Below are positions 11,137 through 13,902 of a DNA stretch of 64,000 bases, one piece after another; position 1 is the stretch's first letter, and each line of letters begins with the position of its first letter. Made by a program: the position numbers and the translations under genes. This stretch comes from Escherichia coli (GTDB lineage: Bacteria > Pseudomonadota > Gammaproteobacteria > Enterobacterales > Enterobacteriaceae). The notes below the pieces were generated by a model that was given only the letters and a program-made list of their open reading frames with translations, was not told the DNA's origin and did not search any database. Where the stretch lies: the NCBI RefSeq assembly GCF_016026235.1, contig NZ_CP065613.1, one strand, 5' to 3'.

Positions 11137-13335
11137 ATGTCGACTCCTGACAATCACGGCAAGAAAGCCCCTCAATTTGCTGCGTTCAAACAGCTAACCA
11201 CGGTACAGAACGCCAACGACTGTTGCTGCGACGGCGCATGTTCCAGCACGCCAACTCTCTCTGAAAACGTCTCCGGCACCCGCTATAGCTGGAAAGTCAG
11301 CGGCATGGACTGCGCCGCCTGTGCGCGCAAGGTAGAAAATGCCGTGCGCCAGCTTGCAGGCGCGAATCAGGTGCAGGTACTGTTCGCCACCGAAAAACTG
11401 GTGGTTGATGCCGACAATGACATCCGTGCACAAGTTGAATCTGCGGTGCAAAAAGCGGGCTATTCCCTGCGCGATGAGCAGGCCGCCGACGAGCCACAAG
11501 CATCGCGCCTGAAAGAGAACCTGCCGCTGATTACGCTAATCGTGATGATGGCAATCAGCTGGGGTCTGGAGCAGTTCAATCATCCGTTCGGGCAACTGGC
11601 GTTTATCGCAACCACGCTGGTTGGGCTGTACCCGATTGCTCGTCAGGCATTACGGCTGATCAAATCCGGCAGCTACTTCGCCATTGAAACCTTAATGAGC
11701 GTAGCTGCTATTGGTGCGCTGTTTATTGGCGCAACGGCTGAAGCTGCGATGGTGTTGCTGCTGTTTTTGATTGGTGAACGACTGGAAGGCTGGGCCGCCA
11801 GCCGCGCGCGTCAGGGCGTTAGCGCGTTAATGGCGCTGAAACCAGAAACCGCCACGCGCCTGCGTAACGGTGAGCGGGAAGAGGTGGCGATTAACAGCCT
11901 GCGCCCTGGCGATGTGATTGAAGTTGCGGCGGGCGGGCGTTTGCCTGCCGACGGTAAACTGCTCTCGCCCTTTGCCAGTTTTGATGAAAGCGCCCTGACC
12001 GGCGAATCCATTCCAGTGGAGCGCGCAACGGGCGATAAAGTCCCTGCTGGTGCCACCAGCGTAGACCGTCTGGTGACGTTGGAAGTATTGTCAGAACCGG
12101 GAGCCAGCGCCATTGACCGGATTCTGAAACTGATCGAAGAAGCCGAAGAGCGTCGCGCTCCCATTGAGCGGTTTATCGACCGTTTCAGCCGTATTTACAC
12201 GCCAGCGATTATGGCCGTCGCCCTGCTGGTAACGCTGGTGCCGCCGCTGCTGTTTGCCGCCAGCTGGCAAGAGTGGATTTATAAAGGGCTGACGCTGCTG
12301 CTGATTGGCTGCCCGTGTGCGTTAGTTATCTCCACGCCCGCGGCGATTACCTCCGGGCTGGCAGCAGCGGCACGTCGTGGGGCGTTGATTAAAGGCGGAG
12401 CGGCGCTGGAACAACTAGGTCGTGTTACTCAGGTGGCGTTTGATAAAACCGGTACGCTGACCGTCGGTAAACCGCGCGTTACCGCGATTCATCCGGCAAC
12501 GGGTATTAGTGAATCTGAACTGCTGACACTGGCGGCGGCGGTCGAGCAAGGCGCGACGCATCCACTGGCGCAGGCCATCGTGCGCGAAGCACAGGTTGCT
12601 GCACTCGCCATTCCCGCCGCCGAATCACAGCGGGCGCTGGTCGGGTCTGGCATTGAAGCGCAGGTTAACGGTGAGCGCGTATTGATTTGCGCTGCCGGGA
12701 AACATCCAGCTGATGCATTTGCTGGTTTAATTAACGAACTGGAAAGCGCCGGGCAAACGGTAGTGCTGGTAGTACGTAACGATGACGTGCTGGGTATCAT
12801 TGCATTGCAGGATACTCTACGCGCCGATGCTGCAACTGCCATCAGTGAACTGAACGCGCTGGGCGTCAAAGGGGTGATCCTCACCGGCGATAATCCACGC
12901 GCAGCGGCGGCAATTGCCGGGGAGCTGGGGCTGGAGTTTAAAGCGGGCCTGTTGCCGGAAGATAAAGTCAAAGCGGTGACCGAGCTGAATCAACATGCGC
13001 CGCTGGCGATGGTCGGTGACGGTATTAACGACGCGCCAGCGATGAAAGCTGCCGCCATCGGGATTGCAATGGGCAGCGGCACAGACGTGGCGCTGGAAAC
13101 CGCCGACGCAGCATTAACCCATAACCACCTGCGCGGTCTGGTGCAAATGATTGAACTGGCACGCGCCACTCACGCCAATATCCGCCAGAACATCACTATT
13201 GCGCTGGGGCTGAAAGGGATCTTCCTCATCACCACGCTGTTAGGGATGACCGGGTTGTGGCTGGCGGTGCTGGCAGATACGGGTGCGACGGTGCTGGTGA
13301 CAGCGAATGCGTTAAGATTGTTGCGTAGGAGATAA
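11137..13335 (+). CDS. zntA: Zn/Cd/Pb-translocating P1B-type ATPase ZntA
   Basis: 732 aa; N-terminal metal-binding GMDCAACARKVE, CPC transmembrane motif (LLIGCPCALVIS), DKTGTLT phosphorylation site, GDGINDAPA hinge. Confidence 0.96.
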   Translation: MSTPDNHGKKAPQFAAFKQLTTVQNANDCCCDGACSSTPTLSENVSGTRYSWKVSGMDCAACARKVENAVRQLAGANQVQVLFATEKLVVDADNDIRAQVESAVQKAGYSLRDEQAADEPQASRLKENLPLITLIVMMAISWGLEQFNHPFGQLAFIATTLVGLYPIARQALRLIKSGSYFAIETLMSVAAIGALFIGATAEAAMVLLLFLIGERLEGWAASRARQGVSALMALKPETATRLRNGEREEVAINSLRPGDVIEVAAGGRLPADGKLLSPFASFDESALTGESIPVERATGDKVPAGATSVDRLVTLEVLSEPGASAIDRILKLIEEAEERRAPIERFIDRFSRIYTPAIMAVALLVTLVPPLLFAASWQEWIYKGLTLLLIGCPCALVISTPAAITSGLAAAARRGALIKGGAALEQLGRVTQVAFDKTGTLTVGKPRVTAIHPATGISESELLTLAAAVEQGATHPLAQAIVREAQVAALAIPAAESQRALVGSGIEAQVNGERVLICAAGKHPADAFAGLINELESAGQTVVLVVRNDDVLGIIALQDTLRADAATAISELNALGVKGVILTGDNPRAAAAIAGELGLEFKAGLLPEDKVKAVTELNQHAPLAMVGDGINDAPAMKAAAIGIAMGSGTDVALETADAALTHNHLRGLVQMIELARATHANIRQNITIALGLKGIFLITTLLGMTGLWLAVLADTGATVLVTANALRLLRRR

Positions 13336-13342
13336 GGCAAAC

Positions 13343-13420
13343 CGATCGCAACATTGAGCGCGATCGGTCCCCTCGCTCCTCTGGGGAGAGGGTTAGGGTG
13401 AGGGGAAAAGGCGGCATCGA
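13343..13420. repeat. GC-rich hairpin / Box C-like repeat in the zntA-tusA convergent spacer
   Basis: CCGATCGC-aacattga-GCGATCGG stem-loop followed by cccctcgctcctctggggagagggttagggtgaggggaaaagg; resembles GC-rich enterobacterial intergenic repeats (family assignment uncertain). Confidence 0.35.
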
Positions 13421-13436
13421 AGCCAATCTGCCCCCA

Positions 13437-13682
13437 TCAACCGCCTTTACGAATCAAATAACGATAAGGCAGTCCATCCGTCTGTTTGGCAACCAGTTCG
13501 TGTTCCATAAAGGTACAAAACCCAGGGATATCGCGGGTCGTCGCCGGATCGTCAGCAATAATCAGCAACGTTTCACCTGGCTGCATATTGCGCACGGTTT
13601 TGCGCACCATCATTACGGGTTCCGGGCAGCGCAGGCCAAGTGCGTCGAGTGTGTGGTCAGGGCTGGAAAAGAGATCGGTCAT
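13437..13682 (-). CDS. tusA: Sulfur-carrier protein TusA
   Basis: 81 aa [56 protein letters not shown]...; CPxP active-site motif. Confidence 0.93.
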
Positions 13683-13902
13683 TTTCTTCTCATCACATAA
13701 AAAAACGGCGCTAGTTTACGCCCTGTGAGTCCGTAAGCAAACCAGGTTAACGATTGCGTGAAAATTAACCATTGCATTGTCAACGTAAAGCAGTATCATG
13801 CGGCGGCTCGAAAAAAGGGTAAGCACGTTATTATGTTAAGGTAACAGACGTGTCGTACGTATTGGGTTCCCTCACCCCAATGGTTAATCAAAAAGGTACA
13901 AT

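Follow-up and report, generated by a model that had tools for sequence, protein, structure and literature searches.

The short spacer between the convergent genes zntA and tusA of Escherichia coli is GC-rich and strongly folded, and the question that it raises is whether it holds a signal for ending transcription or a copy of a dispersed repeat. Both possibilities had been put forward in a sequence-only reading of the region, which described a perfect stem of 8 bp followed by a GC-rich string resembling Box C and suggested either a bidirectional terminator or a dispersed repeat. BoxC repeats have been recognized as a family since the 1990s. The window analysed here is a stretch of 64,000 nucleotides from E. 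coli that is collinear with the genome of MG1655 and 98.2% identical to it in an alignment across 7.7 kb around the spacer. In the window, zntA occupies positions 11137 to 13335 on the plus strand (a 732-aa ORF, collinear with the MG1655 gene annotated as zntA, b3469), and tusA occupies positions 13437 to 13682 on the minus strand (an 81-aa ORF convergent with zntA and annotated in MG1655 as tusA, b3470). The spacer between the two 3' ends covers positions 13336 to 13436 (101 bp), just as had been proposed from the sequence, with ORF ends at 13335 (plus) and 13437 (minus). The RefSeq record of MG1655 has zero features annotated inside this spacer. When the whole spacer was folded, the predicted energies were -47.6 kcal/mol for the plus strand (z = -3.2) and -47.1 kcal/mol for the minus strand (z = -3.1), relative to shuffled sequence.

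The GC-rich block is a known copy of BoxC and already appears in at least two catalogues, under the names TMECO no. 16 and HPGQ no. 40. The best joint explanation of the locus, to which we assign a probability of roughly 0.85, is that the block is the zntA-tusA copy of BoxC and, most likely, a passenger that is tolerated where two genes end.

The identity of the block was established from published coordinates. The motif formerly called BoxC, and found again as the PIT element, was given the name TMECO, with the search pattern CCCTCNCCC N3-6 GGGNGAGGG N3 GGGNGAGGG (Holder 2015, PMC4666352). Table 1 of the same paper lists 23 copies in MG1655, among which no. 16, of type 'A mm', lies at 3,608,684-3,608,719 on the plus strand. 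These positions align base for base to positions 13370 to 13405 of the window, apart from a single C>T change within the core. The same locus is listed as HPGQ no. 40 of family HPG1, with distances of 48 nt to zntA and 32 nt to tusA (Kaplan 2016, PMC5100583).

The core at 13370-13405 (plus strand) is 36 nt long and belongs to type 'A mm', which has TTA as its second loop and one built-in G.A mismatch. As read from the sequence and the TMECO pattern, it is composed of a C-rich block, CCCTCGCTC, at 13370-13378, a first G-rich block, GGGAGAGGG, at 13384-13392, the TTA loop at 13393-13395, and a second G-rich block, GGGTGAGGG, at 13396-13404. The GC-rich string of 37 nt quoted in the sequence-only reading is found at 13369-13405, one base beyond the right arm of the hairpin discussed below. 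Four G-tracts (GGGG AGA GGG TTA GGG TGA GGGG) at 13383-13405 on the plus strand constitute the putative G-quadruplex motif of HPG1. The window carries T at position 13377 where K-12 has C, which changes the C-rich block from CCCTCGCCC to CCCTCGCTC and converts a C-G pair of the duplex between the C-rich and G-rich blocks to T.G. The strict TMECO pattern is met by the K-12 block and is missed by the window copy by this one base, and on the grounds of orthology and homology we therefore class the window copy within BoxC, its allele being slightly degenerate in relation to this pattern. It shares with TMECO no. 16 the locus itself, the three-block core, the TTA second loop, and the G.A mismatch, with the other type-A copies the consensus of the left and right flanks, and with the family the intergenic position and the multi-copy distribution. 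It differs in having T for C at the eighth base of the C-rich block and in being the only locus of the K-12 set with a perfect 9-bp hairpin built from the left flank. With regard to HPG1, the locus is a listed one and all four G-tracts are intact in the window copy, and the change at 13377 falls outside of them; the difference is that HPG1 is another structural reading of the same sequence, and the G-quadruplex is putative in vivo.

The homology extends well beyond the core. Neither the 36-nt core nor its 19-nt G-rich part is expected to occur by chance (0 expected matches each from 100 shuffles of the window). An nhmmer profile constructed from 14 type-A copies of K-12, with no. 16 left out, matched positions 13345 to 13420 on the plus strand with 71.1 bits (E = 2.3e-21), and this was the sole significant match in the 64-kb window. 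The posterior probability of the alignment is high from about 13350 to 13409. An alignment of 15 type-A copies from K-12 showed that conservation is not limited to the 36-nt core: gc.CgaaCgGTC closes the left flank, which in several copies extends to GATGACAAA..AAAAA, and the right flank is GAACAGGCCnGCA. The homologous segment of the window contains the left flank, the core, and approximately 15 nt of right flank, which read GAAAAGGCGGCATCG where the family consensus reads GAACAGGCCnGCA. The repeat unit at this locus thus runs from about 13345 or 13350 to 13420 and consists of a conserved left flank, the 36-nt core, and a short right flank. MG1655 also contains five inverted pairs of a type-A and a type-B copy, and the linker within these pairs begins with GAACAGGCCnGCAC, which is the right flank of single type-A copies, the zntA-tusA copy included. 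Single BoxC copies may be half-deleted pairs of this kind. An 8-bp perfect inverted repeat, AAAGGCGG/CCGCCTTT, is located at 13407-13414 and 13441-13448 with a loop of 26 nt; it flanks the tusA stop codon, with one arm within the right flank of BoxC and the other within the tusA coding sequence.

Copies of this repeat are abundant in E. coli. A blastn search with a 49-nt core query returned 84,035 places in 5,425 of 5,426 complete genomes, almost all of them chromosomal, with a median of 17 per genome and a range of 1-31. A megablast search with the 101-nt spacer undercounts these places (median of 3 per genome) because it requires an exact word of 28 nt, and the blastn figure is the real one. 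The window holds one copy, which lies entirely inside the 101-bp spacer. This blastn count excludes a single-copy sequence, and the suggestion of a Box C-like dispersed repeat was correct, given that the block is the orthologue of a catalogued copy. All 23 copies of K-12 were recovered at their published coordinates by a pattern search of the 17 fetched MG1655 regions that hold them. All 18 K-12 loci are intergenic; 7 are convergent, 9 tandem, and only 2 divergent, so that in 16 of the 18 the repeat follows one gene or more. BoxC is dispersed in the intergenic regions of E. coli and of several related genera.

Two other assignments were considered for the spacer and rejected. The small RNA Hrs13 (Rfam RF02631) aligned to it with 19.7 bits relative to a gathering threshold of 52 bits, none of the tusA loci scanned from Erwinia, Pantoea, and Dickeya gave a match, and the resemblance is treated as a chance likeness of GC-rich hairpins. 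The other Rfam matches obtained at permissive thresholds, such as the ylbH leader at 14 bits, were all below threshold. REP/BIME elements resemble BoxC in being short, structured, dispersed intergenic repeats that are found mostly downstream of genes, and REP clusters occupy this same spacer in B2 strains of E. coli, in Citrobacter, and in Klebsiella. However, there is no sequence relationship between the two families, the REP-type GCCGGATG...CCGGCCTAC motif is absent from the window spacer, and the spacer gave no naRNA4/REP match at E <= 10, whereas the spacer of strain NC101, used as a positive control, scored 65.2 bits.

The perfect stem had been described as a structure of 8 bp standing apart from the repeat. 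Such a stem does exist, but its length is 9 bp, and one half of it belongs to BoxC. The left arm, ACCGATCGC, is at 13341-13349 and the right arm, GCGATCGGT, at 13360-13368, with a loop of 10 nt between them and 5 nt between the zntA stop codon and the hairpin. The right arm coincides with the conserved left flank of the type-A copies (consensus gc.CgaaCgGTC), and both the family alignment and the profile match place the loop together with the right arm inside that flank. The left arm is specific to this locus and is situated at the outer, poorly conserved edge of the flank; the profile alignment extends into 13345-13349 with low posterior probability only. Of 2000 shuffles, just 1 produced a 9-bp stem drawing on the 16 nt upstream of the core. 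Among the 22 other K-12 copies, none has a perfect stem of at least 6 bp that reaches the conserved flank of about 9 nt beside the core, so the perfect hairpin is a feature of the zntA-tusA locus and not of the BoxC family. In one type-B copy of K-12 there is a 12-bp hairpin, unrelated to this one, whose end lies 10 nt before the core. The predicted RNA energies of the 9-bp hairpin are -14.8 kcal/mol on the plus strand and -17.6 kcal/mol on the minus strand. The perfect hairpin abuts the zntA stop codon in the short form of the spacer, which is near-invariant and was found in 4570 of 5426 E. coli genomes. In this common form the left arm is local sequence that directly follows the zntA stop codon. 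A 9-nt direct repeat, GATAAGGCA, occurs at 13331-13339, which includes the zntA stop codon, and again at 13463-13471 inside tusA, probably by chance.

The spacer was also compared between lineages, with the tusA protein as the query that provided 80 orthologous loci. The T allele at 13377 was found in approximately 3049 of 5426 E. coli genomes (about 56%) using a 51-nt query at a coverage of at least 80%; megablast cannot seed on the K-12 allele with this query, and the count is of T-allele genomes only. The predicted RNA hairpin is weaker for the T allele (-24.4 kcal/mol) than for the K-12 allele (-26.2 kcal/mol). The B2 strains NC101 and Nissle have a longer spacer of 260-268 bp with a REP cluster between zntA and BoxC (positions 451-718 of locus L098 for NC101 and 451-710 of locus L099 for a Nissle derivative), and the naRNA4 score of NC101 given above exceeds the gathering score. 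The left arm in these B2 strains is ACCGGTTTC, 7 extra nucleotides are present, and there is no perfect hairpin; 7 more nucleotides and imperfect arms are also found in E. albertii and in a Pseudocitrobacter MAG. It may be added that GATAAGGC is the complement of GCCTTATC, a REP segment that adjoins the region of the zntA stop codon in the B2 strains. Lesions of the core itself vary from strain to strain. In Nissle, 8 nt of the second G-rich block are deleted, and in NC101 the C-rich block ends in CCT. In THO-008 (positions 451-1005 of locus L100), the left flank is kept, the core is absent, and a hypothetical gene of 102 aa is present in the spacer. In E. albertii (locus L018), the spacer is 1.1 kb long and contains another insert, of the size of an ORF, and the core is truncated. 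The stem has a 7-bp version in the Pseudocitrobacter MAG, whose type-A core is complete. Within Escherichia, the spacer thus takes at least four structural forms: the 101-bp form, the form with the REP cluster, the form with the 102-aa gene and no core, and the 1.1-kb form of E. albertii.

Beyond Escherichia, REP-like elements occupy the zntA-tusA spacer of Citrobacter and Klebsiella, and simple CCCTCTCCC/GGGAGAGGG hairpins are found in the spacers of Yokenella and Enterobacter soli. BoxC-like cores within 100 nt downstream of tusA were found at 5 of the 80 loci (L023, L024, L048, L055, and L060), which represent three Enterobacter species, Leclercia, and the Pseudocitrobacter MAG; locus L020 has a degenerate copy only. 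The G-rich strand is antisense to tusA in all five, as it is in E. coli. In Enterobacter and Leclercia, the core nearest to tusA is type-B-like or, in L055, one of a pair. The cores beside tusA may stem from a common ancestor or from several separate insertions at this site. Because different lineages carry different lesions, the pattern looks like the decay of a tolerated repeat rather than constraint, and the lesions agree with the raised variability of TMECO loci relative to control loci (Holder 2015, PMC4666352).

The evidence on transcription termination bears on two of the alternatives. A consensus scan of both strands returned no terminator-like site within the spacer. The tails on the zntA strand are CCCCUCGC after the 9-bp stem and AAAAGGCGG after the BoxC hairpin, neither of which provides a U-tract. 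On the tusA strand, the 9-bp stem with its 10-nt loop is followed by UUGCCUUAUCU, which is below the thresholds of the scan yet close to them and is near-canonical at best. The check by Term-seq that had been suggested did not bring a terminator to light: the curated table of Adams 2021, which is one data set, lists no transcript 3' end at 3,608,600-3,608,799 of MG1655. The same work reports Rho-dependent regions at 3,606,645 (plus) and 3,607,955 (minus), which correspond approximately to positions 11331 and 12641 of the window. The first is inside zntA in the sense direction; the second, which is antisense to zntA, falls about 0.8 kb past the stop codon of tusA. The latter is compatible with tusA transcription that crosses the spacer, without proving it. 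An earlier study, as cited in Holder 2015 (PMC4666352), reportedly found neither promoter nor terminator activity for PIT elements. The spacer resembles the intrinsic terminators of convergent gene pairs in having a GC-rich stem-loop right after a stop codon; it differs from them in that the zntA strand has no U-tract, the U-tract of the tusA strand is broken, the scan is negative, and no 3' end is listed in the one data set.

The alternative that survives best, which we consider unlikely and which is compatible with the passenger explanation, is that the repeat supplies a one-directional terminator or a 3'-end stabilizer for tusA. According to this proposal, a deletion in the main E. coli lineage paired local sequence with the left flank of BoxC and so produced the perfect 9-bp hairpin, which on the tusA strand stands in front of UUUGCCUUAUCU and would end or protect the tusA mRNA. 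The predicted stability of the minus-strand hairpin (-17.6 kcal/mol) is in its favor, as is U in 5 of the first 8 tail bases if the stem is taken as CCGAUCGC/GCGAUCGG, together with the near-invariance of the short form. The weak Hrs13 alignment, which is on the minus strand, also sets the hairpin on the terminator of that model; however, the match is far under the gathering score, and the Erwinia and Pantoea loci have no match near tusA. The hairpin fails the criteria of the scan, with a 10-nt loop and U in only 4 of the 8 positions after the full 9-bp stem, no 3' end has been mapped to it in the Adams 2021 table, the Rho-dependent region at 3,607,955, which comes later on the minus strand, suggests transcription across the spacer, and the short form is missing from about 16% of the genomes. 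The specific history, in which the loss of a REP cluster and 7 bases in the main E. coli lineage joined the zntA stop codon to the left flank of BoxC and so created a terminator or 3'-end protector for tusA, is somewhat less probable again. If it is true, it would be a small case of the flank of a selfish repeat recruited as a gene 3'-end signal.

Upstream of tusA, a separate terminator-like hairpin, GGCGTAAACTAGCGCC followed by GTTTTTTTAT, is located on the minus strand at 13707-13722, with a tail to about 13697. On this strand, which is that of tusA, the start codon of tusA (13682) follows shortly after it; the hairpin belongs to the divergent region between tusA and yhhQ and is downstream of a TTGACA at 13782-13777. 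This hairpin could be a leader or attenuator structure, or could have arisen by chance.

A second alternative is that the element is a regulatory switch of non-B DNA, in which the G-rich strand adopts a triplex or G-quadruplex in vivo and thereby controls transcription, blocks a polymerase, or promotes variation. Consensus TMECO oligonucleotides were shown by CD and NMR to form, as single strands, a hairpin and an intrastrand purine-motif triplex in vitro (Holder 2015, PMC4666352), and a cation-dependent switch between G-quadruplex and hairpin was reported for the HPGQ motif (Kaplan 2016, PMC5100583). For the core of the window, the energies predicted with DNA parameters are nearly equal, at -12.6 kcal/mol for the G-quadruplex and -10.6 kcal/mol for the hairpin. 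The variability of TMECO loci above that of control loci and the structural variability of the zntA-tusA locus itself also fit a switch. However, in vivo footprinting with DMS gave no support for a stable triplex, a duplex was formed when the complementary strand was added, and the genes that flank TMECO copies have no functional theme (Holder 2015, PMC4666352). The lesions described above, namely T at 13377 in about 56% of the genomes, the CCT of NC101, the 8-nt deletion of Nissle, and the loss of the core in THO-008, each weaken the structure in their own lineage. We regard such a switch as improbable. Later functional work on the BoxC/TMECO/HPGQ/PIT element was searched for in a literature library from 2016 onward, and none was found there.

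The bidirectional intrinsic terminator proposed in the sequence-only reading, in which the 9-bp hairpin, the BoxC hairpin, or both would halt polymerases arriving from zntA and tusA, is very improbable, for although the spacer is convergent, folds strongly on both strands (z of about -3.2 and -3.1), and has a stable predicted hairpin in each direction, the scan found no site on either strand, the plus-strand tails are CCCCUCGC and AAAAGGCGG, the Adams 2021 table has no 3' end at 3,608,6xx-3,608,7xx, PIT elements reportedly have no terminator activity, and the perfect hairpin is missing in B2 strains.

We return to the explanation that BoxC is a tolerated passenger between the 3' ends of zntA and tusA. 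Read-through from either gene would place the copy in the 3' untranslated region of that gene, and the main effects of the copy at this locus would probably be local DNA instability with raised rearrangement and a strongly structured 3' untranslated region, rather than regulation. The 9-bp hairpin, whose right arm is the left flank of the repeat itself, may in addition help to a modest degree, with the tail UUUGCCUUAUCU, to terminate the tusA transcript or to protect its 3' end. That the passenger has no function is an argument from absence, which depends on one set of 3' ends in which zntA and tusA may have been too weakly expressed. The near-invariance of the short form in 4570 of 5426 genomes fits shared ancestry and equally fits selection. 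The occurrence of BoxC-like cores beside tusA in the same orientation at 5 of 80 other loci, each representing a species, could be a sign that this position is favored by the repeat or of some use.

The correct label for the block in the zntA-tusA spacer is BoxC and not terminator, and what appears to be a stand-alone hairpin is half composed of the flank of the repeat. The function of BoxC is a long-standing question, and the zntA-tusA locus is no more testable in this respect than the other copies; beyond the correct annotation, the significance of the result is small. Across the Enterobacteriaceae, repeats are gained and lost in the spacer between zntA and tusA, which makes it a small hot spot of such turnover.
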